A stretch of DNA of 64,000 bases from Carcharhinus longimanus (lineage: Eukaryota), in NCBI GenBank assembly GCA_030264375.1, contig JASCQW010000137.1, positions 19,575,462-19,639,461 on the forward strand, read 5' to 3'. Under the pieces are notes generated by a model. The model did no database searches, was not told the origin of the DNA, and saw only the letters and a program-made list of their open reading frames with translations. The translations under genes and the position numbers were made by a program. Shown here in pieces: positions 1,441-61,125 of the stretch. The stretch's first letter is position 1, and the number at the start of each line of letters is the position of its first letter.

Positions 1441-1989
1441 GTATATCTTGCTGTTGTTGGTTGTTGACCCTTTAGTCACGATGCACATATGCTATAGAAC
1501 TGCCTTGCTAAACATTTCTGTTTCTCCATTTCTCAAGTTTGGAAAACCTCCTCAGGCCCATTTCTTCAAGCGAGCTTTTGGTCTCTCCTTCCAGTACTTC
1601 CCTTTCTGGCTCAGCACCTTTTGGTTTCATCTATTTGTGATGTGTATATTTTTCATACAGACAGCCACAGATATTATGGAAATTCAGATTGCTTTGTTGT
1701 AACCCTAATGGACTGCTACAGGCTTCAGGCCTTTCCATTGCTTTGGTTGCTGCAGGGTCATTTTTTAGTGGTAAAAGCAGTTGTTATTTTTGCACAGAAT
1801 TGCTGCTGATGAAAGTTCCACACAGTGTTCTACTTCAGCCAGAGGCGGGGAGGGGATCTCCTCACGGTGCTCACTAATCTGTATTTGCATATAAATATGG
1901 GGATTTGGGGATTGGGATTACATCAGTTTTGGTTATTATTGCTGTTCTCCAAGCAAGTCAGAGACAGACATAATTGCAACTTGGGAATT

Positions 1990-2635
1990 TTTTAAAATTC
2001 ATTTGTGGGACATGGGTGTTGCTGGCTGGCCAGCATTTATTGCCCATCCCAGGTTGCCCAAGTGCAGTTGAGAGTCAATCACATTGCTGTGGTTTTGGAG
2101 TCGCATGTAGGCTAGGTAAGGATGGCAGATTTCCTTCCTTCAGGAACATTATTATTTATTTATTAGCGTCACAAGTAGGCTTACAATGCAATGAAGTTAC
2201 TGTGAAAATCCCTAGTTTGCCACACTCCAGCACCTGTTCGGGTACACTGAGCAAAGATTTAGCATGGACAATGCACCTAACCTGCATGTCATTCAGACTG
2301 TGGGAGGAAACCAGAGCACCCAGAGAAAACCCACGCAGACACAGGAATAATGTGCAGACTCCACACAGACAGTGACCCAAGCCAAGAATTGAACCTGGGT
2401 CCCTTGCACTGTGAAGTAACCACTGTACCACCAAGCTGCTCAAATTTTGAACCAGAGGGTTTTTTTGTGACAATCGACAATGGTTTCGTGGTCATCAGTA
2501 GATTCTTAATTCCAGATTTTTTTTATTGAATTCAAATTCTATCATCTGCCATGCTGGGATTTGGACCAGCGTCCCCAGAACATTAGCTGGGTTTCTGGAT
2601 GAATAGTCTAGCGATAATACCATTAGGCTATTGCC
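1990..2635 (-). mobile_element. tRNA-headed SINE with LINE-derived tail, interrupted by a V-SINE
   Basis: Minus-strand A-box TAGCCTAATGG (2630-2620) and B-box-like GGTCCAAATCC (2567-2557); head and tail shared with the element at 39877-42861. Confidence 0.7.
2151..2441 (-). mobile_element. HE1-like V-SINE nested in the older SINE
   Basis: tRNA head (ccaggttcaattc) and V core (gtctgcgtgggttttctctgggtgctctggtttcctcccacagtc) on the minus strand. Confidence 0.85.
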
Positions 2636-8522: not shown

Positions 8523-10484
8523 TCAGTGTGACACCTGTGCTTGTACATTATCTGTGAGTGTTGTGAAGTCTGGGTTGTGGTTTGAGATGGATAGTCTCAT
8601 ACAATCTATCAGATGGGCATCTGTGAGATGAGTGCGACTCTTGAACTTGATGATTTTTACCTGGAAAAGCCAGAGGTATGTGGAATGAAAATAGGCCTTC
8701 ATCTTGAGTGCACACAATGTCAGAAGAGGATACTTCTCTCTATTTACAAGACCCCAAAAGCCTTTGCCACTTGACCTAGCTTTCAACTCTCATTTTGCAC
8801 GGTGATTATTTCCATGTCAAGCCCATGGCTTTGTTTGAACACCAGCTGAAATTTTGCTGTCCACTTGAAGACAAACTGAATAATTTGAGGCATTTGAGAC
8901 AAACATAATAATTTTGTTCCATCTTGTCTAACTCCTGAAATTGTCTGTTGAAATCCTTTTTCGGTTTGTTCAGGTGGTCAGAGAATTTATTTGGATGGAA
9001 CCCTTTCTCCTTGACCTGTTGGATTTTCTCCAGATTCGGGAAGTACTCAGTAATTTTGCTCTTTAACTGGGAGGACCACAGGCCCAGTTTCAACTTTAAC
9101 ACATTCACTGCACTGATCATGTGTGACCAGTCTCTGTCTCTCTCCTGCAGTTCACAGTTCAGCCCACTCAATTTTACACTTATGTCCGTAAGAGATGTCA
9201 AATCTAGCATAGCTCACCTCATTTCTTGATTTAAGAAAGCTGAAATTTCAGGGAGTAGATCTAAAAATCTCTGGAGGACTTCTCCTCGACTTAACCACCT
9301 CACATCTGCATAAAGGATTAGCTCACTATAGGTGGCATTAAGCTTTTCGAGTAACAATTTGAACAAACAATGTTGCAGAGTTCTGGCACAAATTAAGCTA
9401 ATGATCTTGACAATAATTGTCATTACATGAGAAAAATCAATAACTTTGTTCGCAAACATTTGTTGGTAAATAACACGGTGGTAATTGACAAAGAAGGGGA
9501 ATACAGCATCATTTCTACAAAGTGCAACCTGCACTGACACCCAGCATTGATGGTGCACCATCAGTAGTGATTGAAACCAGTTTCAATTTTAAATTTAGAT
9601 TTAATTTAATTTAATTTTAAAACCGTTTTCATTCGTTGTCCTCTTTTTGAGAGGCAAAAGAATGAGGAAGCCCTCCTTTCTTGTTGCATCTGTGAATGTA
9701 TTGCGAACAAAATAAAAAGCTGGGTCATATCAGTCATGTCTCTTGATGCATCAGACTGCAGTGAGAAACATTCACAGCTCGATAAGTCTTGGTGTATTTG
9801 CTGAGACACACCTTCGTACAATTCCACTCTTCTGGCCATTGTTAAAACATTAAGCAGCATGCTTCTGATGGCTGTCATAATTTCATCTTTGTTTTTAAAG
9901 TCTTTGAACAAGATGTCGACAGCAACCATAATAGCTTCCGTGATAACTTCGCCATTGATAAACAGTTGCTTATGTTTTGTCAGAAGATGGCTAATGCAAA
10001 AAGACACCTCTTTGCGAGCCTTGCCGTTAGCCACAGGTTTTCAAAAGAGCAATTGTTGAGCTTGCAGTATTCCCTTTAACTCCCAACTTTCTTTGTCTGA
10101 ATGGCACTGTTTAAAGAGAAATGTTCTTGAAATTTTACATGTGTTGTCTTGTGATGCCATTCCAAATTACCCTTTGTACTCAAGGCCAAACCCTGTTGAC
10201 AAATAAGACAAATGGTTTTGCCTTTAGCATTCATAAAAAGAAATTCACTTTCCCATTCCTGGTGGAAATGGTAGGTTTTTACCCTCTTGAAGCCCCTGGC
10301 ACCTTGCTCATTATTTTGTCTTCACCCAGCTGGGCCCACGTTTAGGCACCTGCAATCTGGCAGTCAATGAGCTGATTCGCTCATCATCACAAGAAGCCCG
10401 AGACTCATGCATTTTGGCAGTGGTTCAGCAGACAATGACAATCAAGTTTTTGAGACTCTGCAATTGACTATTTGGAGACCGCAT
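8523..10484 (-). mobile_element. hAT (Buster/SPIN, GTF2IRD2/EPM2AIP1-like) transposase pseudogene with one TIR-like end
   Basis: Collinear frameshifted pieces: KTYHFHQEWESEFLF..KTICLIC, FSLQSDASRD, YADVRWLSRGEVLQRF, LTDISVKLSGLNCELQ, LTDAHLIDCMRL..QAQVSH*; end at ~10484 reads ATGCGGTCTCCAAA next to tccTAaag. Confidence 0.88.
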
Positions 10485-11377: not shown

Positions 11378-11654
11378 GGGCAACAAGGTGGCACGTTGGT
11401 TAGCACTGTTGCCTCACAGTGCCAGGAACCCGGATTCAATTCTCAGCTTGGGTCACTGTCTGGGCAGAATTGCACATTCTCTCCATGTCTGTGTGGGTTT
11501 CACAGTTCAAAAGACATGCAGATTAGGTGCATTGGTCATGCTATATTCCTCCTCAGTATACCCGAACAGGCACCACAGTGTGGCAGCTCAGGGATTTTCA
11601 CAGAAACTTCGCTGCAGTGTTAATGTAAGTCTACTTGTGACATGAATAAATAAA
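11378..11654 (+). mobile_element. HE1-like V-SINE
   Basis: A-box TGGCACGTTGG, B-box GGATTCAATTC, V core and AATAAATAAA tail. Confidence 0.85.
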
Positions 11655-18470: not shown

Positions 18471-18576
18471 AAATGTACTTGTAAACATTTGCTTGTAACA
18501 ATATAGTTGCACTTTCTTGCTAGTACAAGGCTCTGTGAAATAAGTTTCTGAAATCTGCTTCCACTCCATAGGACAC

Positions 18577-18802
18577 AAGAACAGCTTCTTCCCTGCTGCT
18601 GTCAGACTTTTGAATGGGTTTACTTTGCATTAAGTTGATCTTTCTCTACACCCTAGCTAAGGCTGTAACACTAGATTCTGCACTCTCTCATTTCCTTCTC
18701 TATAAACAGTATGTTTTGTCTGTACAGCATGCAAGAAACAATACTTTTGACTGTATGTTAATACATGTGACAATAATAAACCAAATCAAATCAAAATCAA
18801 AA
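18577..18802 (+). mobile_element. Rex1-type LINE 3' end
   Basis: Near copy of 245-460 with (TCAAA)n tail. Confidence 0.85.
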
Positions 18803-20833: not shown

Positions 20834-21288
20834 GCAGCGCGGCTGGTTTCCGGTGGGGGTGACAGTGACTGAGGGAACTGCTCCTGTCGCAGCCGTTTCC
20901 AAACAGGCCTGCCAACGGACAGTTGCCGTCAGCTCGGCTTCGCCTCATCCGTTAAGCGGCGGAGGATCAGCCCCCCCCCCCGAACCCCGGTGGGGCCGTC
21001 NNNNNNNNNNNNNNNNNNNNNNNNNNNNNNNNNNNNNNNNNNNNNNNNNNNNNNNNNNNNNNNNNNNNNNNNNNNNNNNNNNNNNNNNNNNNNNNNNNNN
21101 CGGCGGAGGATCAGCCCCCCCCCCCCCCGATCCCCGGTTGGGCCGTCTTTATTTTTCTTCATATTATTTTTTTCGGGCGGAGAGTTTGGTGTCGCTCGGC
21201 TCGGCCGGGTGCCGGGTGAACTCGCCGTCGACAGTTTCTCCGGCCTATTTTTTTCTCTCTCTCCGAAGCGTCGACTGGGCGGCTTAAG

Positions 21289-21465
21289 ATGGCGGCGGCG
21301 GCGGGCAGCAGCGGGGAAGAAGAGCGCAGCCTGCGAGAGTGCGAGCAGTATGTCCACAAGCACAACATCCAGCAGGTCCTCAAGGACTGCATCGTGCAGC
21401 TCTGCATCGCCAGGCCCGAGAAACCCATCACCTACCTCAGGGAGTACTTCGAGAAACTCGAGAAA
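21289..21465 (+). CDS. PRKAR1A: PKA RI-alpha coding exon 1 (dimerization/docking domain)
   Basis: [59 protein letters not shown]; 177 nt; donor GTGAGT. Confidence 0.97.
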
Positions 21466-21537
21466 GTGAGTTTTAGGAGGGCGGCGGGCTTCATTTTTCT
21501 CCAAAGGAAACATGGAGTGGCCTTGTTTATGTCGGGG

Positions 21538-21650
21538 ATTTGATTTGATTTATTATTTGCATTGGGATACAGTGAAAAGTATTGTTTCTTGTGCGCTATA
21601 TTGACAAAACATACCGTTCATAGAGAAGAAAAGGAGAGAATCCAGAATCT
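21538..21650 (-). mobile_element. Rex1-type LINE 3' tail in intron 1
   Basis: (ATTTG)n followed by acagtgaaaagtattgtttcttgtgcgctata. Confidence 0.8.
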
Positions 21651-22639
21651 AGGTTTGAGGGTAAAACAATAATTGCCTCAGGAGTGTTAGGAACATCATG
21701 GTGTGGGATGATTGATGGAGATCCAATTTTAATGCCGACATTGGTGGGGGGGGGAGTGTCTCGTATATCTCGATGCATACATTTGTTGAGCCAGTTTGCG
21801 AAACAGAAACAAAGTGAAACCCTCGTTAAATCATTAACAGTGGACCATTGGCTGCTTCAACGTTTCTACGCTTGCATCCTGAAAAACATTTAAGGTGAAT
21901 ACATTCGGAAAAGTTAATATGATAACGCTGCCGCCCCCCCCCCCGCCCTTTTGAGAGCCCTCAGTCCATAGGAACTAAGTGCAGAAGTATGCATTCAATG
22001 CAACTCTTTTCTGTTTCTGAATCGCTCATTGATCTACAATAGTGGCCAGAGATTTGCATCAAATACAATGGAACATTGCATTTGAGGATCGTTGGTGAGT
22101 GAGTCATTGAAGTCAGGACTTTAAATAACTCATTAACTGTAGAAGTATAATTAAACCACTTTGTGTAATCCTGTGATTTAACAGTATTTTATTGGGATAT
22201 TATTCATTTCTATGCAGTCATAATCAGAATTTCCTCCTGTGACTTATCTTCCTGCCTCCCCACAGTATACCTTTTTAGAGTTCCCCCAAGGATCTATTCA
22301 TGACCCATCTTATTTCAGATCTACACACTTCCCCTTGTTAACATCATCTATGACATTAGGCTTTATATATACCTCTATCTCTTGACCACTGTGAGATCAG
22401 GTTGTACGGCTGGATGTTATCTAGCGAACGTATACGGATAAATCCTTGGGAATTTGAAATGTGCTGCAGGGGCAGGAAAAAAATGAGGAAATTCTGACTG
22501 AATAATGAGTTCATGGATAACTCCAATTTATTAGAATTATTCAAATCCTGTTAAAAGCACAAGACAGTATTTTAACTATGCTTCCATGACTCGAGAGCTA
22601 TGTAGCAGTCCTGACATTCAATCACTCATTCACCAAAGG

Positions 22640-23230
22640 CCCTTGTATGCAACATTTCATTTATTCTGTAACCTTTCCATCATCTACATCACACAAATCA
22701 GGAGTGTTATGGAATATTCTCCACTTNNNNNNNNNNNNNNNNNNNNNNNNNNNNNNNNNNNNNNNNNNNNNNNNNNNNNNNNNNNNNNNNNNNNNNNNNN
22801 NNNNNNNNNNNNNNNNNNNNNNNNNNATCAGGAGTGTTATGGAATATTCTCCACTTGACTGAGTTAATGTCCCTTCAAAAAATACTCAAATCTCAACCAA
22901 TTCAGGACAAAACAGTCCACCATCACCTTAAACATTCATACCTTTGCCACTCATGTTGCAGTGTTACCATCTGCAACGTGCCAAGACTTCTTTGACAACC
23001 CCTTCCAAACCTATGACCTTTACCATTGAGAAGAAGGACATGGGCAGCAGGTGCATGAGAACACCACCAACTGCAAGTTCTGCTTTAAGTAATGCACCGT
23101 ATTGGAAATATATCTGTTACTTCAATGTGGTTGGGTCAAATTCATGTATCGTTACTTGTCAGTAGAATGGGAGTACCTTCACATGGATTGCAGTGTTACA
23201 CTTCGTCTTAAAAGGTGGCATTCCCCAATT
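22640..23230 (+). mobile_element. 3' part of the CR1-like LINE family seen at 39877-42861
   Basis: LSIIYITQIRSVMEYSPL RT C-terminal motif. Confidence 0.65.
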
Positions 23231-26815: not shown

Positions 26816-27754
26816 TTTGGAAGTGTTCTCAAGTTCTTAGAATGGGATTCAGTATTTCTAGCCCCTCTCCTCACTTTCACAGACCAATCCATCTCAGAAT
26901 CAGCATAGGAATTGGGAACATGGTGTATCCCTCTCCAATTCCAGATAACACAGACCAGAGAAAGATATCGAACACAGAGCGAGCTTCTACCACACTTTGT
27001 CATGAATCTGCAAAGACAGAGCTAAACAATAATTGAAACCACAATGTTTGGGTGTCATCTGCTTAAAGTTAATTGTGCTGTAACAAGATTTATTATTTGA
27101 AAGTGGAAGGGGACACAAGATGCAAAATGAAATTGTCCGTTTATGGTCCACTTGTTAATCTTGTGTATCCACACTGTCGGCACGGCAGTGGAAAATATCC
27201 AGACAAAGTTTTGATAGAAAACATTGAACACTTTTAATCAACTTTGTTGTATAACATCTTAACTAAATCAGCCTTGCTAAAAATGGTCACCTGACATACT
27301 ATTGGAAGTAGCAACAGTTATACTGTGGGAACCAATCTAAAACAAGGCAGCACAATGATGCGGCAAGTTGATGTATGATACACTGCTCTTTAAAATAGGG
27401 TTACTTATGGAGCTGTTTATATAGCCATCTATATAGCTGTACTTTCTGAGCTGTATGTACATCAGAGGGAATTCCAGGACTTTGACCTAATGCCCGTGAA
27501 GGAATGGCGGGATATTTCCTGAGAGGATAGATAGGCCTCACTTGAGCAACTCATCCGTACGTTGTCGTCTCCAGGATTTGAACTGGCTCAGAAACAAAAG
27601 TGCTTCCTATTTTACCATAGCCCAGTGTATATTTGGAGAGTGGGACCCTTCAACTCCAATGCATCATTTGCAACTTAAATGCAAAATCTACACTGGAAGC
27701 TTCAGGCCTGATCTTACCAATGCTCTGGGGTTGGGATGGGAGATCAGACAGATT

Positions 27755-28208
27755 TTAAAGCATTCTTTTACAGGATGTGGGCATCACTGCCAATGCCGAC
27801 ATTTGCTATTCATCCATAATTATCCTTGAGATTGCGGTGGTGAGCTGTGTTCTTGAACTGCTGCAGTCCATGTGCTGTAGATACACCCACAGTGCTGTTA
27901 GGAAGGGCATTCCAGGTTTTTGAAACAGCGGCACTGAAGAAATGGTGATATATTTTCACATCAGAATAGGGAACTTGCAGGAGGTGTTCTCATTCCTCTG
28001 CCGCCCTTGTTCATTGTGTTTGGAAGATGCTGTGGAAGGAACCTTGGTGGGTACCTGTGGAGCATCTTGTAGATGGTGTACACTGCGGCTACCACACATC
28101 AGTGGGGGAACAGGTGAACATTTAAGGTGGGGATGGAGGACGAATCAAGTGAGCTGCTTTGTCCTGGATGGTGTTAAGCTTCTTGAGTGTTGTTGGAGCT
28201 GCACCCAC
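27755..28208 (-). mobile_element. CR1-like LINE 3' end (same family as 39877-42861)
   Basis: AAPTTLKKLNTIQDKAAHLI on the minus strand plus the shared tail. Confidence 0.7.
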
Positions 28209-28825: not shown

Positions 28826-29625
28826 TTTTTTTCAATCATTCGTGAAGTGTGAACTCAGAGCCAAGGTCATAATTTATTATCCATCCTTATTTATCCTTGA
28901 GGAACCACCAGCATAAATTGCAGCAATCTGGTGGTGATACTCCATTGATATTGATAGGGAGGGATTTCTAGAAATTTGACTATAATGAAGGAACACACCT
29001 TATATTTCCAAATCAAGTTGATCTTTGACCTGATTATGTTCCCATCTGTTTGCTGTCATTGCCTTTTATGTAGTAAAAGTCACATGCATGGAAGGTGATG
29101 ACGGTTACTCCTAGAGCCACTTCCTTTTAATCATGTACCATTGTGCCACCATTGGGTGTCTTAAGCTGGTGCATTTGAACAAACCAGCAGATGGTGATGG
29201 ACTCTTTGCTAGCTGAAAGATATCATTTTGACTCAGTTTGTCAGACTGTTTGACAAGCCTCTAATGCCAAGGTTGTGCTGGTTGGCCTATGGTTTTATTC
29301 TTGTATTTTGTTGTAGCGGTTTAGCACCACTAGTAGCTTGCTAGGCTATTACAAGGGTTAGTTAAGAATCAACCGTGTTTGTCTGTCAGGAATCACAGGC
29401 CAGATTGAATAAGAATGGTTGATTTCTTCCCAAAAGAGCATTAGTGAACTGAATGGGTTTTGATGACAGTTTGCAAGTTACCTGGCCACCATTACTGCTT
29501 TTTATTCCAGTTTGATTTAATTAACTGAATTTAAATTCCCCAGTTGCTATGTTGGAATTTAAAGTCTCTGGATCATTAGGCAGTCTCTGAATTGCATGTC
29601 TAGTAACAACCATTATGCTACTCTA
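28826..29625 (-). mobile_element. ~800-bp internally deleted tRNA-headed LINE derivative
   Basis: Same tail (atttattatccatcc) and head (ctgaatttaaattccccagttgctatgttggaattt) as 1990-2635 and 39877-42861, more diverged. Confidence 0.55.
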
Positions 29626-29669
29626 CCTGTAATTCATACTGTCTGATGTAAATTGCAGAAAGTCTGCTT

Positions 29670-29835
29670 ATAACTGCATATTGGGTTACTGGAGTGATAT
29701 CCATCATTGTAGCCTGATGTTGAATTTGGATGGCTGTCAAGTAGAGGACCTGTTTGTTTAGACATAAAAGATCCTATGATGCTATTTGAAGAAAGCAGAG
29801 TTCACCAAATTGAGTGGTTCGTCTAATGGCTGTGA
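29670..29835 (+). mobile_element. DeuSINE (SacSINE1/AmnSINE1-like) fragment
   Basis: Deu core-like gacataaaagatcctatgatgctatttgaagaaagcagagtt. Confidence 0.55.
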
Positions 29836-31204: not shown

Positions 31205-32165
31205 ATTTGTCTAATAGAGAAAGCAATGTTGGTTGTTGAGTTCTTGAATATTGATCAGTCCAGCAAGTCAAAGCAGTCCTGTTGGAGCTCATCTGTTGCC
31301 TCAGATCAACATTGCATGATTTTCTTTCTGATTCTCCCATTTTAGTTTCTGCTTGTGCTGGAAGCAGGAGCACCGACTTGTGGTCTGATTCGCTGAAGTG
31401 TAGAAGGGAGATAGTGATAGGCACGTTCGATGTTTGTGTAGCAGCGGTCAAAGATGTTGGGCCTCTAGTGGGACAGGCAATATATTGATGGTATCTTGAT
31501 AGGATATTCTTGAGATTGAAGTCACTACGGTCCTCACCAATTTTTGTGGATACACTATAGAATGCATCCGATACGGTAGTATCACAGCTTGGTGTGGCTC
31601 CTGCTCTGATCAAGACTACAAGAACTACAAAGGGTTGTGAACACAGCTCAGTTCTTGAATATTGATCAGTCCACCAAGTCAAAGCAGTCCTGTTGGAGCT
31701 CATCTGTAGCCTCAGATCAACATTGCATGATTTTCTTTATGATTCACCCATTTTAGTTTCTGCTTGTGCTGGAAGCAGGAGCACAGACTTGTGGTCTGAT
31801 TCCCATCCATTACCTCTGCCTACACTTCCTGCTGCTTCAGGAAAGCAGCCAGCATAATCAAAGCCCCTACATAGCCCAGATATACTGTCTTCCACCTTTC
31901 GTTGGGAAAAAGATACAAAGCTGAAAACAGGTACCAGTGGACTTGAGAATAGCTTCTTCCCTGCTGTCGTCAGACTTTTGAATGGTCCTACCATATACTA
32001 AACCAATCTTTCTCTTCACACTACCTGAAACTGCAATACTATATTCTGACTGTATCCTTTTCCTTTTCACCTATGTACTTCAGGAAGGACATGTTTTACC
32101 TGTATACTGTACAAGAATCAACACTTTTCACTATTTCAGTACAGCTGACAAATCAGATCAGTCAA
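31205..32165. mobile_element. Rearranged Rex1-type LINE: inverted endonuclease piece plus sense 3' end
   Basis: Minus-strand DFNLKNILSRYHQYIACPTRG and SDHKSVLLLPA; plus-strand RT end and tail from ~31525. Confidence 0.8.
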
Positions 32166-34580: not shown

Positions 34581-36000
34581 TTCAAAGATCAGTTAATGGA
34601 GTTGTCATGTTAAAATCCACGGTTTCTGAAGAAGTTGATGTCTTCAGGTTTTTAAAAAAACTGTAGCTACTTAAATTTAAGAAAAGACCATCTGTGAGTG
34701 AATTTAAATTGTTCGTTTATTAAAAAGTTTATTTTAAGAATTGGATCTTTCAGTTAGAGGTGGTAGGGTGAAGGTGCGAGTGAACAAATTTGCTTTGGTG
34801 CATTTTCAGTGATTTGGTTTTTGCCCATCTATCAGAGATATAATGACCCAGAATTTGCAGTGAAACTGTCAGTATTGGCTTGCATTGTACAGTGTAAAAC
34901 TGACTGCAATTTATGTATTCCACGAATGTGGAAATCTGGAAGTTGCTCTTCCGCAGGGTCCACTAGTGTAGTCATTGTGGTGGAACCAACACTGGCAGTT
35001 GTGTTAGTACTTCAAATTTAAGCTCCGCTCTCGCTTTTGAAAATGTTAAAATGTTGTTGAGTGAGGGAGAACTAACTTTTGAACATTATTCTAAGTTATA
35101 ATTACTACAGGAAATTTCTGTAGCTCTTTAAAAAAAAATTTTTATCATTCCCTATAGTTAATGTTTCCATGACTTTAAAATAACAGCTTCTATCTTAATT
35201 CAAAGAGTGTCCCCTAATCTTTATTTTGCTTTTTGTAATTTTGCTTTCTGTAAAATGGTTAATAAATGAATTATCCATCTAGAGTTTATCTGAAAATGGA
35301 ACATATGCAATAGCCACATTTTAAAAACCTTGTTAACTTTTGGCACAGGGATCTAACTGCCTGCAATGTTTACTATGCATTTTTTTTGTGGTAATCATAT
35401 CAACAAACTTTTCTGGTATCCTCTTTATTATGTAGTCATACATCTTCATTTTCTAATTATTTTATTTATTTTGACTATAGTTGACCTAGCTTAGTCTATT
35501 GTAATGTAAATTTATATGCGGTATCTGAAAATCAAAATGATTTGAAATTCAAAATGCAGTTAGCCCCGAGGGTTTTGGACAAAGAATAGTTGACCTGTAA
35601 TTGTACTCTTTACTTCCTCATTTGTGCTTTGAGAGAACTCTTCAGTCTGGCTGCTTGACTTGTTCGATGACATGACAGTTGCTGGAAGTCATAAATACCT
35701 AGTGATGGCACCAGATTGAAAGCTACATCCGAAAAAGACAGTGCTTCCTAAACTATTCTGTATGTGACCCCATTTTATTGCTTTTAAATTGATGCAACTT
35801 CATAGTGCATTCAAAAGGTCATTGGGAGGAATTGTAATGTCGTTTTGAAGACTGAATTTTGCCTAGATTGATTCCCAGCAACCGAGGGAGAAATTGCTTT
35901 TGCTTAAGGAATAATTGAATCATTCAGAGGCCATTCAATCCGTCGTGTTTGTGCTGAAACTGAGAGTAACATTTTTTTTCTTTATTTCTTCTCAAAAAAG

Positions 36001-36174
36001 GAGGAGGCCAAACAGATGCACAATCAGCAGAAATCAGGTTCTCGATCTGATTCGCGTGAGGATGAAATTTCTCCACCTCCACCCATGAATCCGGTAGTGA
36101 AGGGGCGTCGACGACGTGGGGCAATTAGTGCTGAGGTTTACACTGAGGAAGATGCTGCATCATATGTGAGAAAG
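36001..36174 (+). CDS. PRKAR1A: PKA RI-alpha coding exon 2 (linker, pseudosubstrate RRGAI)
   Basis: [58 protein letters not shown]; AG/GT flanks. Confidence 0.97.
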
Positions 36175-37321
36175 GTAGAAACAAATCCTATACAGACTAT
36201 ATTATGTTCAGAATAATTCCTTGACAGATAATTCACTGGTATTGTGTAAGCTCCCTTCCACTGCTTGGTTACTTCAGGTTGTATACTAGTTAATTATCAT
36301 TTCAAAGCAAGTTTCACAGATCATGCAGTGAAGTTACTTCTGAACTGTGACATTTGATTGTAAGACGAAGGGTAGAGTTTCAGTTAGTAATATCAGTCTC
36401 ATCCAGACAGGCACTGTTGGTGTAAAGGATTGGAGGAAGTTAACTGTAAGTGAGTAGTGCCTAAAAACACTTGTTTGTGTTCCATAAATTTTTATACTGG
36501 TTTGAAATTTAATTTAGCCGATCAGGAGAAAATTCTTTTTTATCCCATCCAAAAAAAACAAATTCAAATTATGGTCCCTACAAGAGAAACAAACAAGATC
36601 TAAGCTGACAAGATGAGGCATTGCACCCTATCTTGGGCTTGATTTGATGCTTTATCTTAGCAAAACACAAAGATACAATTTTTTTAAAGCTATCGGGCAA
36701 TACTTTTGTTGTACCTCATCGGCTACCCGATCATTGACTCTACCCCAGTGTTGGAGATCAATCTGCCTGATTGTTGACCCTCCCCTGCCAGATAAGTATC
36801 CTAATCAGGAGAGACCGACAAAATAGTCCATGCAGACTGTCAAAATTGCAAGATTTCTATCGCTGGCTGAAACTTTTTAAAATTACAATCATTTTCTTAA
36901 GTGNNNNATACTCGTGTGTCAATTTCAAAACTTTCAGTGCATCAAGAAATGCTTAATTTACTATGAAACCGACTAGTGTATACGGGATGCTACCAAATGA
37001 TTCAATGTAGATTCTGGTGTCGTTCTCAGTGCCTTTTAAATCGGATCAATCAAAGAGAATGACTGGATGCTTTTTTAAAATGCTCGACACCCTTAATGCA
37101 TTGAGTACTTTTTGATGGAAAAAGGAAAGCAAAAGGAAATCAATTGTGATTGTGCCAGTGCATTTTATGGAAACCTGATCTGTTGCCTGACCAACACAGT
37201 TTTGAAAACACTTTCCTTAAATTGTCCAAAACAGAAACTCTACTCAATAATATTTTACTATTTTAATCTTTTGTTCTCAGTTACCTATTAAAAGCAGAAT
37301 ATGCTTATTTTATAACTGTAG

Positions 37322-37959: not shown

Positions 37960-39400
37960 TTAGAACCATAGAACATTACAGCACAGAAACAGGCCTTTTG
38001 GCTCTTCTTGGCTGTGCCGAACCATTTTTCTGCCTANNNNNNNNNNNNNNNNNNNNNNNNNNNNNNNNNNNNNNNNNNNNNNNNNNNNNNNNNNNNNNNN
38101 NNNNNNNNNNNNNNNNNNNNNNNNNNNNNNNNNNNNNNNNNNNNNNNNNNNNNNNNNNNNNNNNNNNNNNNNNNNNNNNNNNNNNNNNNNNNNNNNNNNN
38201 NNNNNNNNNNNNNNNNNNNNNNNNNNNNNNNNNNNNNNNNNNNNNNNNNNNNNNNNNNNNNNNNNNNNNNNNNNNNNNNNNNNNNNNNNNNNNNNNNNNN
38301 NNNNNNNNNNNNNNNNNNNNNNNNNNNNNNNNNNNNNNNNNNNNNNNNNNNNNNNNNNNNNNNNNNNNNNNNNNNNNNNNNNNNNNNNNNNNNNNNNNNN
38401 NNNNNNNNNNNNNNNNNNNNNNNNNNNNNNNNNNNNNNNNNNNNNNNNNNNNNNNNNNNNNNNNNNNNNNNNNNNNNNNNNNNNNNNNNNNNNNNNNNNN
38501 NNNNNNNNNNNNNNNNNNNNNNNNNNNNNNNNNNNNNNNNNNNNNNNNNNNNNNNNNNNNNNNNNNNNNNNNNNNNNNNNNNNNNNNNNNNNNNNNNNNN
38601 NNNNNNNNNNNNNNNNNNNNNNNNNNNNNNNNNNNNNNNNNNNNNNNNNNNNNNNNNNNNNNNNNNNNNNNNNNNNNNNNNNNNNNNNNNNNNNNNNNNN
38701 NNNNNNNNNNNNNNNNNNNNNNNNNNNNNNNNNNNNNNNNNNNNNNNNNNNNNNNNNNNNNNNNNNNNNNNNNNNNNNNNNNNNNNNNNNNNNNNNNNNN
38801 NNNNNNNNNNNNNNNNNNNNNNNNNNNNNNNNNNNNNNNNNNNNNNNNNNNNNNNNNNNNNNNNNNNNNNNNNNNNNNNNNNNNNNNTTGATATAGATGA
38901 CAAACAACAATGGACCCAGCACTGATCCCTGTGGCACACCACTAGTCACAGGCCTCCACTCAGAAGCGATCCTTCACTACCGCTCTCTGGTTTCTTTCAT
39001 TTGAGCCAGTGTCTAACCCAATTTACTACCTTTCCATGTATACCTAGTGACTGAACCTTCCTAACTAACCTCCCATGCGGTACCTTGTCAAAGGCCGTAT
39101 TGAAGTCCATGTAGACAATATCCACTGCCTTCCCTTCATCCACTTTCCTCCTTACCTCGAAAAACTCTAATAGATTGGCTAAACATGACCTACCAAGCAC
39201 AAAGCCATGTTGACCCTCCCTAATAAATCCCTGTCCATCCAAATATTTGTAGATCTTATCTCTTAGTACTCCTTCCAATAATTTACCTACTACTGACGTG
39301 AAACTTACCGGCCTATAATTTCCCAGATTACTTTTTGAGCCTTTTTTAAACAACAGAACAACGTGCGCTATCCTCCAATCATCCGACACATCAACCGTAG
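37960..39400 (-). mobile_element. Relatively young CR1 LINE (RT region) spanning a gap
   Basis: TSGVPQGSVLGPLLFVIYI; LFKKGSKSNLGNYRPVSFTSVVGKLLE; MDFNTAFDKVPH. Confidence 0.92.
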
Positions 39401-39876
39401 ATATTTTGCAGAGTATTTTGTGAGGTTTCTCATATTTTTACCTTTTTTGTGTTGACATCTAGGGACTTGAATTGCCGTTTTGATCTCACCTATTATTCCC
39501 TTCTCCCTTTGCAATCCCACTAATTAAGTCTCTCGGCCAGAAATTGTGAAGATAGTGATATATGGTTTCTACGGATACTCCTCAACAATGTTCCTTTTTT
39601 ATTTTGTACAGACTAAAATTTAAAAACTTGCTACCTTCAAATCTTTTTCTGTGGCTGCACAAACATGGTCAGTTAAAAGGAAATACTAGTGAGAGGTCTG
39701 CACACTTATTCCCAAGTTGCCGCCAGCTATAAAGCTGTGCAGCTTAGAGCAAATGTTGCTCCAAACTTTAAATGCTGTATTGTTCTGATAGGAATGGGTA
39801 CTAATGGGATGATAGCAAGATGAATTTTATTTCAACAGCGAGCTTAGCCTTCACTTCAGACCTTTTGACTGCTATC

Positions 39877-42861
39877 TTTTTTTATTAATTCATGGGACAT
39901 GGATGTCACTGATGAGACCAGCATTTATTGCCCAACCCCAATTGCCCTTAAAAGTAGTTGTGAGCTGCTACATTTACTGCTGCAGTCCATGTGATATGCA
40001 TACAAGCACAGTGCTGTTAGAGAGGGAGTTCCAGGATTTTTACCCAGTGACAATGAAGGAACAGCAATATATTTTCAGGTCAGGATGGTGTATGGGTTAG
40101 CGGGAAAGTTCTAGGCGGTGGTGTTCCCTTGCAAATTTTCCTTTTGGGTGGTAGTGGTTGTGGATTTGAAAAGTGTTGTACAATGAGTCTTGGTGAGTTT
40201 CTGCAGTGCTTCTAGATTGCACAGTGGTGGCAATATGTACATCGGTGGTGGAAAGAGTGAATGTTTCTGGGTGGGATGAAATTAAGTAACTGCTTTGCTC
40301 TAGATAGTGTCAAACTCGAGTGTTGTTGGAGTTGTATTCATCCAGGCAATTGGTGAGCATTCCATGGTAGATGGTAAACAAGAGTTACTTGCTATAAGAT
40401 TCCTAGTTTCTGACTTGTTCTTGTAGCTGTATTTAAATGGCTAGTCCAGTTCAGTTTTGTCAATGGTAACCCCCCCAAGAATGTTGCTAATGGATGTTCA
40501 GCAAAGCTATTGCTATTGAAAATTATGGGGTTTCTGTTGTTGGAGATGGTCCTTGCTTGGTACTTGGCATGTAAATGTTACTTGTCAGCCCAAGCCTGGA
40601 TATTGTCCAGGTCTTCCTGCATTTGGAAATGGACTGCTTCAGTGTCTGAGGGGTCACAAATGATGCTGAACATTGTGCAGTCATCAGCCACCATCCCAAT
40701 TTCGACCTTATGGTAGAAGGAAGACATTGATAGTAAAGCAGCTGAAGATTGAGATTGGGACACTACCCGGAGGAATACCTGCAGTGATGCCCTGGAACTA
40801 TGATTGATCTCCTAACAACCACAGCCATCTTCCTTTTGGCTAGGAATAGCTCTGATCAGTGGAAAATTTCCCCGATTCCCATTGACCTTGTATTGCTAGG
40901 GCTCCTTGATGTTACACTTAGTCAAATGTCAAGGGCCATCACTCATCTTACCTCTGCTGTTCAGCTCTTTTATCCATGTTTGAACTAAAGCTGAAGTGAG
41001 GTCAGGCAGTATCCATGTGAGTGTCAGTGAGCAGGCTGTTGCTCAGTTAAGTACAGCTTGATAGTATTGTTGAATGTCTTCTATCACTTTATTGATGTCA
41101 AGTGTAGGCTTTTGAGGTGGTAATTGGCTGGGTTAGATTTGTCCCATTTTCTGTGTACAGGACATATCTGGGCAATTTTCCATCTTGCTGAGAAGATGCC
41201 AGTGTTGTAGATTTACTGGAACACCTTGGCTTGGTCTGCTGCAAATTCTGGAGCACAAGTGTTCATTACTGTACCAGAATCTTGTCAGGGCTTGTAGCCT
41301 TTTCAGTATCTAGTGCCTTCAGCTGTTTCCTGATATCACAGAGTGAATGGAATTTACTGTAGTCTGGCATTTGTAATTTTGGGGACCTCTGGAGGAGGCT
41401 GGGATAAATCATCCACTTGGCATTTCAGGCTGAAGATTGTTGGAAATGTGTCAGCCTTATCTTTTGCCTTATGTGTTGGCTTTCTCATCATTGTTGGGGA
41501 TATTTGTGGAACCAGTGAGTTGTTTAATTGTCCACCACCATTCATGCCTGGATTTGATAGGACTGTAGAGCTTAAATCTAATGCTTGCTGCTTGTGCGGT
41601 TTGGCACGCTTGCTGCTTATAATCTGTGGCGTAGGTTCTCCAGGTTGACATTTCATTATTATGTATGCCTGGTGGTGCTGCTGCTGCTGACATGTTCAGC
41701 GCAGAGTGCAAGAGACCCAGGGTTGATCCCCAGCTTGGTGGTAAAGGTAGAGTAGTGGATATGAAGATAAGATTATGGTTGTGTATAATTCTGCGGCTGT
41801 TAATGGCCCACATAACCTCTGTTCAGTCTTGAATTGCTTGATCTATTATAAATCTATCCCATTTAGCACAGTAATAGTGGTACACAACAGGAAGGGTCTT
41901 GTCAATGTAAAGATGGGACTTTATTTCCACAAGGACTGTGTGGTGGTCACTCCTGGCCATACTGTCATGGACAGATGCATTCAAGTTGGTGAGGATGAGG
42001 TCAAGTACGTTTTCCTTTATTGATTCCTTCAGCTGCAGTTGTGTCCTTTTGGACTTGGCCAGCTCAGTCTGTAATGGTGCTGCCGAGCCACTCTTGGTGC
42101 TGGACATTAAAGTCCTTCACCCAGAGTGCATTCTGCACCTTTGTCACCCTCAGTGTTTCCCCCTCAAATGATGCTCAACATAGAGAAGTACTGATTCATC
42201 AGTTGAGAGGTAGTTTGTGGTAATTAGTAGGAGGTTTCCTTGCCCATGTTGGAGCTGATGCCATGAGACCTCATGGGCTCTGAAATCGATGTTGACGACT
42301 CCATGGTAACTCCCTTCTGATTGTATACCACAGTCCCATCACTTCTGATGGCTGTTTCTGGCTAATGGAACAGGATGTATCCAGGGATGGTGATTGTGAT
42401 GTTTGGGGCATTAAATATGATTCTGTGTATCAGGTTGTTGTAAACTGTGCACCAGCTCTCCCAATTCAGCACGTTCGTTAGCAAAGAGGTGTTTGCAGGG
42501 TTGATAGGGCTGAGTTTGCTCTTGTTTCCAGTGCTGAGGTCAATGCTGGGTGGTACATTTGCATTCCTTCCTTATTTGGTTTCCTTCCAGTGCTTTGATG
42601 AACTGAATGGCTTGTTAGGCCATTTCAGAGAGCATTTAAGAGTCATCTACAGTGTGCTAAAGTCTGGAGTGACGTGTAGACCAAACCAAGTAAGGATGAT
42701 TTTCTTCCCTGAAGTGAAACAGGTAGATTTTTATTACAATAGTTCCATTTCAGATTTTTATTGATTGAATTCAAATTCCACCATCTGCTGTGGTGGGATT
42801 TGAATCCGGGCCCCCAGAGCACTACGAGTCCAGTGACAATACCACAACACCTACTTCTGCC
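39877..42861 (-). mobile_element. Decayed CR1-group LINE (EN+RT) with a tRNA-like 5' head
   Basis: Endonuclease motifs TITIPGYIL, HEVSWHQ, NVLDLILTN, SDHHTV; RT MVADDCTMF, DLDNIQAWADK; head with B-box-like GGATTCAAATCC. Confidence 0.8.
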
Positions 42862-43439: not shown

Positions 43440-44765
43440 TAGGAAGGGTGAAGTAGATAACAATCATTGGAATTAGGCCCTTTTCTATTTGTGCTGGCAC
43501 TCCAGTAGCATTCTAGCTCAATCCCACTTTCCAGCTCTTGGTTGGTTGCCATGAAGGTTGCCATGAAGCACTTTGAGTGCTTATCCAACTACCACTTAGC
43601 TGTAATGAGGGTTTCTATTATTTCAGGTTCAGGAGTAGCAGATCCTCTCCACCCTCTGGGTGAAAGTATTTTTCCCTCAAATCCCCTCTAAACTTTCCTA
43701 TATCTTAACTGCAAGGCATTTAGATCATAGAATCCTCCAGTGCAGAGGGAGGCCATTCAGCCCATCAAGTCTGCACCAACCACAATCCCTTTCCCTATAA
43801 CCCCATGCATTTAGTTAGTTCTCCTGACACTAAGGGGCAATTTAGCATGGCCAGTCCATCTAACCTGCACATCTTTGGACTGTGGAAGGAAACCAGAGCA
43901 CCCAAAGGAAACCCACGCAGACACGAAGAATGCAGACTCCACACAAACAGTAACTTGAGTTGGGAATTGAACCCAGGGCCCTACTGCTGCGAGGCAGCAG
44001 CGCTAACCACTTTGCTACCGTGCTGCTTGTTTATGATATGGACCCCTGGGGGTAATAGGACCACCTTATCGTTTCTATCTCCATCCTGTCTAATTTTATA
44101 CACTTCGATTAGTCTTCTGCTTCAAGAATAACAACCCTAGCCTGACCCACTCTTTCGTCACAACTAAAATTCTTCTGTTTAGGCATACTCCATAAATCTC
44201 CTCAAGACGCTCTCTGATGCAATCCGCTATCTTTCCTGTAGTGCAGTTCTCTAGCTGCGGCTTCCCAACTTACATTCTGTCTTTTTTTTTCAATAAAGAC
44301 AAGTATCCTGAATGCTTTTGTGAACAACTTATCTAACTGTTTCACCACCTTCAGAAATCTGTGTGCATGCACTCCAAATCCTCTGTTCTTCTACACCTCC
44401 TGGTATCCACCCATTTATTGTGGGTTTGCTCATCTTGCAAGCCTTCCCCAAAAGCATTATCTCCTACTTCTCAGATTGAACACCGTTGGTCCACCTGGTC
44501 CACTCACCAGGCTAGTCCATTGATATCATCTTGCATATTGAAGCTTTCTTTATCATGCACATAGCTAGTTTTTGTATCATCTACAAACTTGTAAGTCAAA
44601 ATCATTGATTAATGTCACAAAAATTAAGGGGCCTAGTAACAAGCCATGTGGAATCCCACAGGAAACAGCTGTCCAGTCACAAAAACCCCCATTAACCATT
44701 GATCTTTTCGACTTCCTTTGAGCCAGTTTTGGATCCAACTTGCCGATTTTCCTTGGATCCCATAA
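43440..44765 (-). mobile_element. Decayed CR1 fragment with a nested SINE
   Basis: CDWTAVSCGIPHGLLLGPLIF on the minus strand. Confidence 0.7.
43722..44026 (-). mobile_element. HE1 V-SINE with a CR1-type tail
   Basis: tRNA head and V core, plus atcatagaatcctccagtgcagagggaggccattcagcccatc tail. Confidence 0.85.
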
Positions 44766-48521: not shown

Positions 48522-48735
48522 TATCATAGAATCATACTCCTTCTGCATTGCAGGAATTCTATGCACCACTCTCCCAACAGAAGATTCTATCCAGGCCCTA
48601 TCCNNNNNNCACCTGGAGGAAACCCACATAGGTACAGGGAGAATGAAACTCCACGCGGCCCCCTAAAGCTGGAATTGAATTTGGGTTCCTTGCTCTGTGA
48701 GGCAGCCATGCTAGCTACTGTCCCATTGTGCTGCC
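48522..48735 (-). mobile_element. HE1-like SINE
   Basis: cacctggaggaaacccacataggtacagggagaa and a tRNA-like head. Confidence 0.65.
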
Positions 48736-56465: not shown

Positions 56466-59379
56466 TGTTTTCTTCTCTTTGAACTGATAAAGCAGATGCA
56501 CAACAAAATTCCATTAAGATCTCTTTACAGTTTTAGATAAGTTAATTCTAACAAAACATGCCCCACCCAAGATAAATGTTGAGCCTTGTAATTTAATATG
56601 ATGGAACAAGAAACATATCAAGGTTTGCTGAATGTAAAGTTCCCTGCATGGATGGCATTGCTGCTTTTTCATGCAGCCTAACTTGGCTTGGTATGTTGAC
56701 TTGTTTTTGTTTGCGACTTGACTATGACTTGATTTCAACCATTACTTTAACTTGGCTTGTAATGTACGTTCCTAATATTTATTAATTAGTTTGTCAAAAT
56801 CTGATATGGAGTCATGCCCCATCTACTATTTTTTCCTCTTGGGTGCCACATGGTTTAGTTCCAAGGAATCAATAAATTTGGAGTAATCCTTAGTTCTGTC
56901 TCTCAGGGCTCTAATAGGATTTATTTGGATTTGATGTACTGTGGGTTGAAACTAATGGGAGAAATTCATTTGGCTGACGATTTGCTCAGCATTACTGCCT
57001 GCAAAGAAATAATCCCTATTTTCATATTTTTGGACTCCAGTAGCTAATATCCAATATTTCTTATCTCCAGATCGCTGTTGACATAACATTTTCAGGATAA
57101 TTTTGTGCTACCCATTCTTGGCACTGTCCTATTTAACTAGACATATTTTGGAATTTTCCAGTGAGGTTCCTGAATAGCTATAAAACCTTGATAGTGGCAC
57201 TGAGAATAAAATAAGGTGGAATTTGTTCCCTTAAACAGTTTTACCACCTTTGACTTTCAGACTGTCTCAAACCACATTCTTGGGTTTAATATGAATGTTG
57301 GCAGATGAACAGCAATCATGCTGTGAAGGTAATAATGACTGACAATTTCACAATGGACATCCCGATAGAAGAACTCAGACCCTATCCCAGTATGTTCAGT
57401 GTGCACATGCCAAGGTGATCCAGTTTGGATTTTTCCAAATTTCATTTTTCCACGTTAGCTAGATTGTAGAAAATTGAGCGCAGTCAAAAACACCTACAAT
57501 ATATTTAAATTGATCTGCATACATTCAATAATTAGTATGTTTTATTTTGTCCCACTTTTGTCTTGATTTATTTCCACCATATTTTGCTTTATCCACATTA
57601 ATAACGAAAACCGGTAAAACACTGTACTATAATTGTAACAGCAACTTTCCCACCAATGCTGGTGTTATAAATCTAATTATCTCTACCGGGAAATTATTTT
57701 GCTCCAACCAACTCAATATTCTCATTTTCTATTCAGCCACAATATGCAAAGAATTATATAGGAATGCACTGTCTTGTCTTTACCATTTCACCTGAAGACT
57801 TTGCTGAGTATAACAGCATGGAACATTGATTATATTCCATAAAATTGATAAATTATTTTTAAACTTGTTGCAGTTTGGGTTGGCAATTTTGTTTGTTTAC
57901 TGCCAAGAGAGACGAGCCAAATTCCTAAGTTATTTTTTTGCTCGATTTGAATAAAAGCATTAATAAAGGTTTACATTATATCCACTAGATTATGTCCTTC
58001 ACTGGAAGGTAGTGCTACTGAGCCACTTTGTAATGGGTATTTAAGTAAGAGTTTCATAGACTTGGAAAAATTTTATTAATATTTTGCTACAAAAATGTGG
58101 GCTACCTAAAGTCAATTTAAGAGCATAAACTCTTTGTCCTATTTCCTATGACAACAGTTTACTCCCTACGCAGCCCACTGCTCAACGAAGAAAGCCTTTG
58201 TCTCAAACCCCACAGATTTAAAAATCATCCAACACCTAGTTGGAACGTGTTTTTTTGAATAACCAGACATGCATTATCTTTTATTTGCTTGCAGGTTTAC
58301 AACTTCCATGTAAGATGCCTTGGGCAAAGTAGGTCCTTTAAGACAAATTTTGCTGAAAACACAGAACTCATATCCAAGTTTTGTTCTCCGGAAAACGTGC
58401 CCAAACAATCCTGAATTGTGGTGATGTGCAGTTGCTGTCTGGGTGGACTGTAATGAATGTTAATAGCTAAGTCTATGCCCAGGAGGGTGGAAAAAATTCA
58501 AGCTCTGATCCTTTGCTCCACTGCAGAGGTCACATTTGGACATAGGTGTGAACTTTTGCACTGCTTGTGGTGCTACTGCTTCCACGTTACTGTTAGGAAA
58601 TTTTCGAACATTGCCCAGTGATGACAGAATGACAAACTGTGATGCAATAAGGATGGTATCCAGCTTGGAAGCAATATTCCACCTGTGATTTATCTTTGTT
58701 TCACTTATGCTTCAATTAATTTTCTTTCTTTATAAAGACATTTGGTATGTCAGTTATTTATTAATAAGTTAAAGGACTATATGGAGCTCATTGTACTGTT
58801 TCTAGTTAGATTATCAGCTGAATGAGGAGCTTATTGTTCACTGCAGATGTACATACACTAAGAAGTACAACACACTCTTATGGGAAAAGAAAACTCCAGT
58901 TGGTCCTGTTACAATTCTAATTCTTAACATGGCTTTTTCTCCCATAAGATATGTCTCCTAATAACGCACAATATAAATGTGTATTTGAAATGTTTTATAT
59001 TATAAATATATATAGAATTGTGAGAATTTTTCAAATAGTATCTTGGGCATGAGTCCCATCTGGCCCTGCTGATTTCTATGCATTCCATGGCTTCATTTCT
59101 CACTATTGAGGAAAATGAATTTGGCTGCTAACAGCTGCAAATGTGAATGGGCCATGATTTATCTTGAGTTGAATCAGCAAATTCAAGGGAAAGCATTTCC
59201 ACAACAGAAAAAAATCCCTTGCAAGCCAATTTTTTTCTGAGCAAGGTTGTGTTTTAAAAAAAAATGCCTCATGGAATAGTAAATCAAGTTAGTGTTTAAT
59301 GATTAGCTCCGAGCTGTTGAGATGAATCTTCTCACCCATATTTTTTCCCTCAGTGTTTTCTGACATGATGAATATTTTG

Positions 59380-59541
59380 ACCTACCTTGCATTAAATTGA
59401 TCTCTCTACACCCTGGCTATGACTGTAACACTACATTCTGCACCCTCTCCTTTCCTTGTCTATGAATGGTATGCTTTGTCTGAATAGTATGCAAGAAACA
59501 ATACTTTTCACTGTATGCTAATACACATGACAATAATCAAA
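59380..59541 (+). mobile_element. Rex1-type LINE 3'UTR fragment
   Basis: Matches 285-445. Confidence 0.8.
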
Positions 59542-60850: not shown

Positions 60851-61125
60851 CAGTTGTTAGCACTGCTGCCTCACAGTGACAGGGACCCAGGTTCGATTCC
60901 TGGTTTGGTCACTGTGCGAAGTCTACACATTCTCCCTGTATCTGCGTGGGTTTCTTCTGGGTGCTTTGGTTTCTGCCCACAGTCCAAAAGACATGCTGGT
61001 TAGGTGCGTTGACTGTGCTAAATTCAGTGTACCTGGAACAGGTGCCTTAGTGTGGTGATACGGGATTTTCACAGTAATGTCATTGCAGTGTTAAGGTAAG
61101 CCTACTTGTGACACTAATAAATAAA
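60851..61125 (+). mobile_element. HE1-like V-SINE
   Basis: B-box GGTTCGATTCC, V core, tail cttgtgacactaataaataaa. Confidence 0.85.

Follow-up and report, generated by a model that had tools for sequence, protein, structure and literature searches.

A window of 64,000 nucleotides (nt) from Carcharhinus longimanus (assembly GCA_030264375.1, contig JASCQW010000137.1, positions 19,575,462 to 19,639,461; all coordinates below are positions within this window) is AT-rich and repeat-rich, and carries on its minus strand, at 39877-42859, a long interspersed nuclear element (LINE) of the Zenon type. Sequence match identifies it as a dead genomic copy of the Zenon LINE of elasmobranchs, a member of the CR1 group with one open reading frame (ORF) coding for endonuclease and reverse transcriptase (RT) and with an A-tail. 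Read on the minus strand, the copy consists of a tRNA-like head followed by a leader, the endonuclease, the RT and a short A-tail. This order, proposed in an initial annotation made from the sequence alone, holds with its coordinates, and the head sequence quoted there is placed at 42843-42768. Endonuclease-like sequence begins near 42497, some 360 nt from the 5' end, which leaves no room for an ORF1. The same head and tail recur in two much shorter elements of the window, of about 800 and 358 nt, the latter resembling a short interspersed nuclear element (SINE). The features of the family and their coordinates are collected in Table 1.

Every reading frame of the LINE copy is broken. Three raw read-through frames returned no Pfam family, and word-indexed protein searches with frames of the window gave nothing at threshold. 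Comparison of one LINE frame with 1.84 billion proteins by phmmer yielded 33 matches at E <= 0.001, and these matches, together with five longer relatives, tile the copy collinearly from the endonuclease through the RT when mapped back by tblastn. Protein P0016 matches the copy at 42412-42165 with an E of 3.6e-18; the Pfam family Exo_endo_phos was assigned to P0034 and, below the curated cut-off, to P0016, and RVT_1 to P0013 (E 2.3e-17). The two named protein relatives (2/5 matches) come from the manta ray and the catshark, in agreement with a shark or ray as host; the closeness of the SINE head to the whale-shark consensus, taken alone, would suggest a carpet shark.

Elasmobranch Zenon elements of the CR1 group have been catalogued from five species, i.e., white shark, whale shark, catshark, spiny dogfish and stingray, by Stuart et al. 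2026 (PMC13343379), where they are named CarCar_Zenon-1, RhiTyp_Zenon-1, ScyCan_Zenon-1, HypSab_Zenon-1 and SquAca_Zenon-1 to -3. According to the accessible text of this source, all Zenon elements lack ORF1 and end in a poly-A tail, the longest family of each species has a consensus of 3244-3314 nt, Zenon makes up 0.7-6.8% of seven elasmobranch genomes (Table S4), and copies with an intact ORF are nearly absent (0/2313 in white shark, 1/1419 in whale shark). The elasmobranch elements are described there as not yet deposited in repeat repositories, although recognized in the whale shark genome; the accessible text of the whale shark preprint (10.1101/443036) names a 'CR1-Zenon like LINE'. The initial annotation had singled out the lack of ORF1 beside the tRNA-like head; the absence of ORF1 is the normal state of all Zenon elements.

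Membership of the window copy in this family rests on the DNA match to the named consensuses. The copy shares with elasmobranch Zenon the 5' sequence, the single endonuclease-RT ORF, the absence of ORF1, the A-tail and a family length of about 3.3 kb, and no structural difference was noticed. In a table of 1,003 families, covered over the first 400 characters of each cell, the only families containing a 22-nt motif of the window head were CarCar_Zenon-1 and RhiTyp_Zenon-1. The consensus readings reported here and below (boxes, stems and identities) were made by eye over the first 400 nt of each consensus. The head begins 7/7 elasmobranch consensuses, from five species, and the leader is collinear with all seven. 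Among three other consensuses, two from hagfish and one from coelacanth, the head was not seen, the start of the coelacanth consensus being in low-confidence lower case.

Since all seven consensuses begin with the head, the head-endonuclease junction is family-wide rather than the product of a chance insertion, and the head is very probably a fixed part of an autonomous elasmobranch Zenon family, as the initial annotation had supposed. The junction is constant in 7/7 consensuses and contiguous in a second copy of the window; adjacency is therefore not confined to a single locus, and full-length copies with a normal 5' untranslated region and an ORF1, the other finding named there as fatal to the proposal, did not turn up. 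That a SINE merely landed beside a 5'-truncated LINE, or that consensus software fused an abundant SINE to a LINE, is hardly credible any longer and already largely refuted. The published consensuses were indeed built by automatic extension of RT seeds with subsequent curation (PMC13343379), and no target-site duplication (TSD) frames the window copy. However, the stretch from head to endonuclease in this copy contains neither an A-tail nor the 3' end of a SINE, and the same junction occurs in the ~800-nt element and in five species.

The tRNA likeness of the head lies primarily in the two boxes of the internal promoter for RNA polymerase III (Pol III), read against the consensus A- and B-box patterns (A box TRGCNNARYGG). 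The A box fits this pattern in 7/7 elasmobranch consensuses, with differences at degenerate positions only, and the B box is intact in 6/7, the stingray consensus showing a 1-nt gap. In the decayed window copy, some 17-18 nt are missing between the two boxes by comparison with CarCar_Zenon-1, partly as judged by eye. A 5-bp stem with a 7-nt loop, carrying AGT at the anticodon position, is recognizable in 5/7 consensuses, the loop reading CTAGTAA in four of them. With this triplet as a pointer, the head would derive most likely from tRNA-Thr(AGU). Profiles of the heads run across the window detected no fourth head beyond that of the LINE and those of the two short elements, and the head motif found no match in bacterial and archaeal genomes. 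Small-RNA matches listed by Rfam fell below the gathering scores and were treated as chance. Folding of the LINE head was no better than that of shuffled sequences (z -0.9), and of the heads and tails folded, the SINE head alone came to a z of about -2.

A near-perfect inverted copy of the B box occurs just 3' of it and would form a hairpin both in the LINE (42768-42806, minus strand) and in the 800-nt copy (29520-29565, minus strand). At the RNA level, such pairing could hide the T arm; alternatively, the inverted repeat could be the scar of the fusion event.

The recurrence of head and tail in elements of about 800 and 360 bp, already remarked upon in the initial annotation, withstands statistical control. 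Shared blocks were tested in seven pairs against 300 dinucleotide shuffles each, and 6/7 pairs exceeded all shuffles. The heads agree most strongly (z=16.6 for LINE versus SINE, 15.9 for LINE versus 800-nt element, 16.2 for SINE versus 800-nt element), followed by the tails (z=12.5 for LINE versus SINE, 8.8 for LINE versus 800-nt element). The LINE leader compared with the SINE part located 3' of its nested insert gives a marginal result (z=5.5, with a score of 53 against 52 for the best shuffle), and the 800-nt element compared with the same 3' part does not beat the shuffles (z=2.8).

Table 1. Zenon-type features of the window and the insertion nested in one of them (positions within the 64,000-nt window).
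Feature	Position	Strand	Evidence or remarks
Decayed, near full-length Zenon-type LINE (~2985 nt)	39877-42859	-	Sequence match
tRNA-like head of the LINE copy	42796-42859	-	3 mismatches in the A box (42852-42842) and 1 in the B box (42806-42796)
Inverted repeat pairing the B box with sequence just downstream	42768-42806	-	Predicted fold
Non-coding leader	42630-42795	-	Common to both short elements
Six-codon upstream ORF	42615-42635	-	ATGs at 42635 and 42623; stop in frame with the endonuclease
Apurinic-type endonuclease region, frameshifted	41829-42497	-	tblastn of P0016, P0026, P0005 and P0034; Pfam Exo_endo_phos
Reverse transcriptase region, frameshifted	40370-41270	-	tblastn of P0013, P0001, P0003, P0037 and others; Pfam RVT_1
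3' tail	39877-39945	-	Possible stem-loop and A7 run (39883-39877); common to the short elements
Internally deleted copy of ~800 nt	28826-29627	-	A box perfect (29620-29610), B box with 3 mismatches; Squalus-type head
SINE-like element of 358 nt (without the nested insert 2155-2446)	1988-2637	-	Rhincodon-type head
Nested insertion in the 358-nt element	2155-2446	-	Different, common tRNA-headed SINE
3' fragment of the same LINE family	27762-28207	-	70% identical to the main copy; 5' side meets an assembly gap
Older 3' fragment, same LINE family	22838-23215	+	Without the terminal tail
Short fragment from the 3' region, same LINE family	27465-27519	-	

Both short elements map entirely to the 5' and 3' blocks of the LINE. 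The 800-nt element consists of about 570 nt from the LINE 5' end, comprising head, leader and endonuclease start, joined near 29095 to about 300 nt from the LINE 3' end. Head, leader and endonuclease codons are contiguous in it, as seen by tblastn with P0016 (E 1.4e-4). At the DNA level, its middle part taken alone scores 37 against 40 for the best shuffle, so that the retention of endonuclease sequence rests on the protein match and on collinearity. In the 358-nt element, head and leader meet the terminal ~65 nt of the LINE near 2060, and the tail is identical to that of the LINE at 52/66 positions. Its A box is perfect at 2630-2620, as previously noted, and its B box (2567-2557) shows one mismatch, the two boxes being 63 nt apart, a tRNA-like spacing; on both strands of the window only three such pairs of boxes occur, the other two being located in or at another SINE family. 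The terminal A runs consist of A7 in the LINE, A7 in the 800-nt element and A6 in the SINE, and their shortness is expected for old copies. A run of four T residues (T4) at 1994-1997 on the minus strand, just before the A-tail of the SINE, is a possible Pol III stop; the other three tails show no such run at this place.

The birth of SINEs by internal deletion, as proposed in the initial annotation, is thus borne out as far as the composition of the short elements is concerned. The deletion series assumed there is not. The SINE head is identical to the whale-shark LINE consensus at 98/111 positions without any gap and agrees with it in the states specific to that lineage, the 800-nt head has an exact stretch of 29 nt in common with the Squalus (dogfish) consensuses, and the LINE copy, whose head resembles the white-shark and catshark type, shares exact stretches of 19 and 25 nt with the white-shark consensus. 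In view of these subfamily-specific matches, the short forms nest inside the diversity of the LINE subfamilies. A stepwise passage from the LINE to the 800-nt and then to the 358-nt form has to be rejected, since the short forms carry different subfamily heads and different breakpoints. The sequences favour instead two separate deletions from different subfamilies, i.e., at least two independent events.

These nested relationships also bear on an opposite scenario in which the SINE came first, the 358-nt element being a copy of an independent SINE that had acquired its tail from Zenon, and the LINE having taken its 5' part from that SINE; the short element would then descend from the donor and would not be a product of deletion. 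This scenario appears improbable. The head must once have come from a tRNA or a SINE, CR1-Zenon is known as a SINE partner in bivalves, where, in the accessible literature, SINEs are mobilized by it through shared tails, and the 5' part of the SINE stops immediately ahead of the short upstream ORF, on the border of the leader, a possible old boundary between SINE and LINE. An old independent SINE, however, would be expected to fall outside the head diversity of the LINE. The SINE of the window shares instead the states of the whale-shark LINE, whereas the LINE and 800-nt copies match other subfamilies. Moreover, the 800-nt form keeps endonuclease codons, so that deletion from a headed LINE does occur.

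The reading preferred here, for which we estimate a probability of roughly 0.55, is that the head contains a Pol III promoter, that the resulting RNA is uncapped and translated from a non-canonical start, and that SINE-like offspring arise by single deletions. The native 5' end of the element would have been replaced by a tRNA-derived, SINE-type head, either before the split of sharks and rays or by spread among them, and the fusion of head and LINE would then have propagated as an autonomous element. The A and B boxes of the head would most likely serve as an internal Pol III promoter for the whole 3.3-kb RNA. For want of a normal AUG in this uncapped RNA, ribosomes may initiate internally or at a non-AUG codon, or may reinitiate at the short upstream ORF or read through it, and the Zenon protein would copy RNAs ending in the Zenon tail. 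A single internal deletion, due to a template jump during reverse transcription or to microhomology repair, would then give rise to the full anatomy of a tRNA-SINE; one deletion would suffice, as the 5' end harbours the promoter and the 3' end the recognition signal. The two deletion junctions themselves are present in the window, and such a jump or repair may account for them, with a possible amplification afterwards.

With respect to transcription, 7/7 consensuses start no more than about 10 nt ahead of the A box, the position at which Pol III would be expected to initiate. No T4 run occurs in the first 400 nt of 7/7 consensuses. The LINE copy, in which the initial annotation had singled out T4+ terminators as a point to check, contains four T4 runs against 6.6 expected and no T5 run against 1.5 expected. 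Two of these four runs are covered by other copies of the family and both are absent from all three of them, so that they look like the result of decay. The pattern of T runs would thus fit transcription by Pol III. With respect to translation, the LINE copy has no in-frame ATG between the stop of the upstream ORF and the endonuclease motif. Judged by eye, the upstream ORF is in frame with the endonuclease in 3/5 species (white shark, catshark and stingray); in the other two an in-frame TGA occurs nearby, again with no ATG in the first 400 nt. P0034, a distant relative (42% identical to P0013), begins with Met and about 115 residues ahead of the endonuclease motif, which is consistent with a loss of the native 5' end in the shark lineage upon gain of the head.

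Several observations weigh against this reading. The acceptor stem is not evident in the elasmobranch consensuses, whose variable region holds about 20 extra nt, and neither ARAGORN (0 tRNA genes) nor Rfam (no tRNA match) recognized a tRNA in the whole window or in the two decayed heads submitted alone. The depletion of T4 runs in the LINE copy is not significant (P ~0.14), nor is it in any of six stretches. Pol III RNAs are uncapped, normally short and untranslated, and an AUG-less ORF2 occurs also in LINEs transcribed by RNA polymerase II (Pol II). The stem-loop of the tail has no statistical support, and an alignment of four tail copies gave no stable consensus structure. A search for TSDs at four elements, including the main LINE, produced none that was convincing. 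The microhomology at the deletion junctions amounts to about 5 nt in the 800-nt element and 8-9/11 nt in the SINE, as read by eye in decayed copies and without a chance control. Finally, each short form occurs as a single copy within the 64-kb window, a number too small to show amplification.

Depending on the weight given to these observations, the head may be considered as fixed in the autonomous element but foreign to the synthesis of its RNA. Pol II would make the 3.3-kb RNA from a promoter in the leader or by read-through from the host, the boxes serving only the derivatives or the structure of the RNA. This alternative, the main rival, is unlikely, though it has to be taken seriously, since an ORF of about 950 codons needs translation, LINEs are commonly regarded as Pol II units in the accessible text of PMC5786205, the leader looks by eye more conserved than the head among the seven consensuses, and the depletion of T runs lacks significance. 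The conservation of the A box in 7/7 consensuses, with changes only at degenerate positions, is nevertheless hard to explain for a passenger, and all consensuses start within about 10 nt of this box, at the expected Pol III start. Another function of the head, namely an RNA-processing signal whose RNase P-type cleavage would cut the 5' end out of a host read-through transcript, in the manner of the 5' ribozymes of R2, RTE and Ingi, seems very improbable. Ribozyme-defined 5' ends have been reported in other ORF1-less LINEs that also make bipartite derivatives, and the AUG-less ORF fits an uncapped RNA here as well. The acceptor stem needed for the cleavage is, however, not apparent by eye in the consensuses, the predicted fold of two window copies pairs the B-box region with downstream sequence and leaves no T arm, and the features that have been kept are those of a DNA promoter.

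Starting from the preferred reading of a headed LINE transcribed by Pol III, a more complete claim can be formulated: the full 3.3-kb Zenon RNA would be made by Pol III from a captured tRNA-Thr promoter, be translated with neither cap nor AUG, and shed true SINE families by single deletions, this design being kept across sharks and rays. This claim is tentative and falls slightly short of even odds. If true, it would amount to a SINE-to-LINE-to-SINE cycle and reverse the model in which the head comes last.

Some elements of this picture have counterparts in other organisms. In Lepidoptera, the ORF1-less Zenon repeatedly gives rise to elements of 260-390 nt in which its 5' end is joined to its 3' end, the break showing microhomology (Wang et al. 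2019, PMC6740152, accessible text). The moth element Persaeus, one of the so-called short internally deleted elements (SIDEs), holds the Zenon 5' end without tRNA homology or Pol III promoter and is explicitly stated, in the text of PMC6740152 available, not to be a SINE. In contrast to Persaeus, the shark derivatives have inherited A and B boxes from the LINE itself, and both carry perfect A boxes, unlike what the definition of a SIDE (no small-RNA head, no Pol III promoter) implies; they arise like SIDEs and are built like SINEs. Bipartite SINEs derived from RTE and Vingi, e.g., Bov-tA, AfroSINE and SINE2_Gav, similarly consist of a tRNA head, a LINE 5' part and a LINE 3' part (Kojima 2018, PMC5786205, accessible text). 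Their tRNA head, however, was added after the deletion and their parent LINE is headless, whereas the parent LINE of the shark elements is already headed. In the available text of the same source, RTE, Ingi, Vingi and R2 are the only makers of ORF-less bipartite elements to be named. It also mentions, in a single sentence, that RTE-1_DAn and relatives are LINEs with a tRNA-like sequence matching many SINE2 families. RTE-1_DAn belongs to the RTE clade, and the position and function of its tRNA-like piece are not described in the accessible part of that source, but this precedent weakens any claim to a first case. Among cartilaginous fishes, HE1 (with its partner HER1), SacSINE1 and the CmiSINEs resemble the 358-nt element by their tRNA heads and CR1-group tails. 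They are set apart by their descriptions, according to which they share only their tails with LINEs and carry V, Deu or CORE bodies.

The family itself, its lack of ORF1 and the internal-deletion derivatives of Zenon in moths are already known. The terms tRNA, promoter and polymerase III occur nowhere in PMC13343379 and its preprint, and the available text of Stuart et al. 2026 describes no short derivatives. No description of a tRNA-headed Zenon or of the 358-nt SINE was found in the literature searched, most subscription papers, Repbase and Dfam lying outside its reach; three motifs of the window had no match in a full-text literature search, and none of the window motifs matched in the supplement of PMC5786205. 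Other literature compared, in its accessible text, comprises bioRxiv 10.64898/2026.01.13.699120, PMC7245038, PMC5499810, PMC11481361, PMC3531059 and PMC3747384. That an autonomous vertebrate LINE bears a tRNA-type head throughout its family, and that SINEs could thereby arise in one step, appears to be unremarked in the literature searched.

The usual model, as given in the accessible text of PMC5786205, opposes protein-coding LINEs transcribed by Pol II to non-coding SINEs transcribed by Pol III, the tRNA head being added to a deleted LINE. In this respect, a high-copy vertebrate LINE that is already headed would allow SINEs to form in one step, and would provide, in nature, a test of whether an RNA made by Pol III can be at once a messenger and a template. 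The headed LINE also matters for annotation, as head-bearing fragments of shark genomes can be labelled arbitrarily as SINE or LINE and pieces of the family are spliced into shark gene models. P0008, P0021, P0037 and P0038 consist of LINE ORF pieces fused into predicted host proteins (tumour necrosis factor receptor (TNFR)-like, FERM and cystathionine beta-synthase-like), such fusions being due either to exonisation or to gene-model error.

The common tRNA-headed SINE that interrupts the 358-nt element is present in at least five copies in the window (2155-2446, 11380-11654, 43839-44026, 48610-48720 and 60851-61125), and in the copy at 44017 both the A box and the B box are perfect. It presumably belongs to the HE1/V-SINE type. 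The idea that the Zenon head is simply the head of this common SINE was rejected, since 4/4 such heads remained within the shuffles and the LINE and 800-nt heads exceeded all 300. Just outside the head of the 800-nt element, the sequence at about 29740-29830 on the plus strand resembles a DeuSINE body.

Exons of a gene for a protein kinase A (PKA) regulatory subunit, presumably PRKAR1A, occur on the plus strand at 21220-21543 and about 36000-36200, the former coding for the dimerisation domain (Pfam RIIa, E 7e-12). The 800-nt element lies antisense between these exons, and the main LINE, farther in the 3' direction and also opposite in strand, probably falls within a later intron. An RT fragment of a different LINE, about 27-36% identical to Zenon-type proteins over a long stretch, is found beside an assembly gap at 38890-39437 on the minus strand. 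Stop-ridden frames at 8806-10040, also on the minus strand, resemble the remnant of a hAT-type transposase, Pfam giving no support for a transposase. A palindromic element of 700 nt (92-793), similar to miniature inverted-repeat transposable elements and 79% self-complementary, has partial copies near 18571-18795, 21537-21652, 31801-32134 and 59375-59540. A direct duplication of 153 nt, with 97% identity, occurs at 31239-31391 and 31650-31802.

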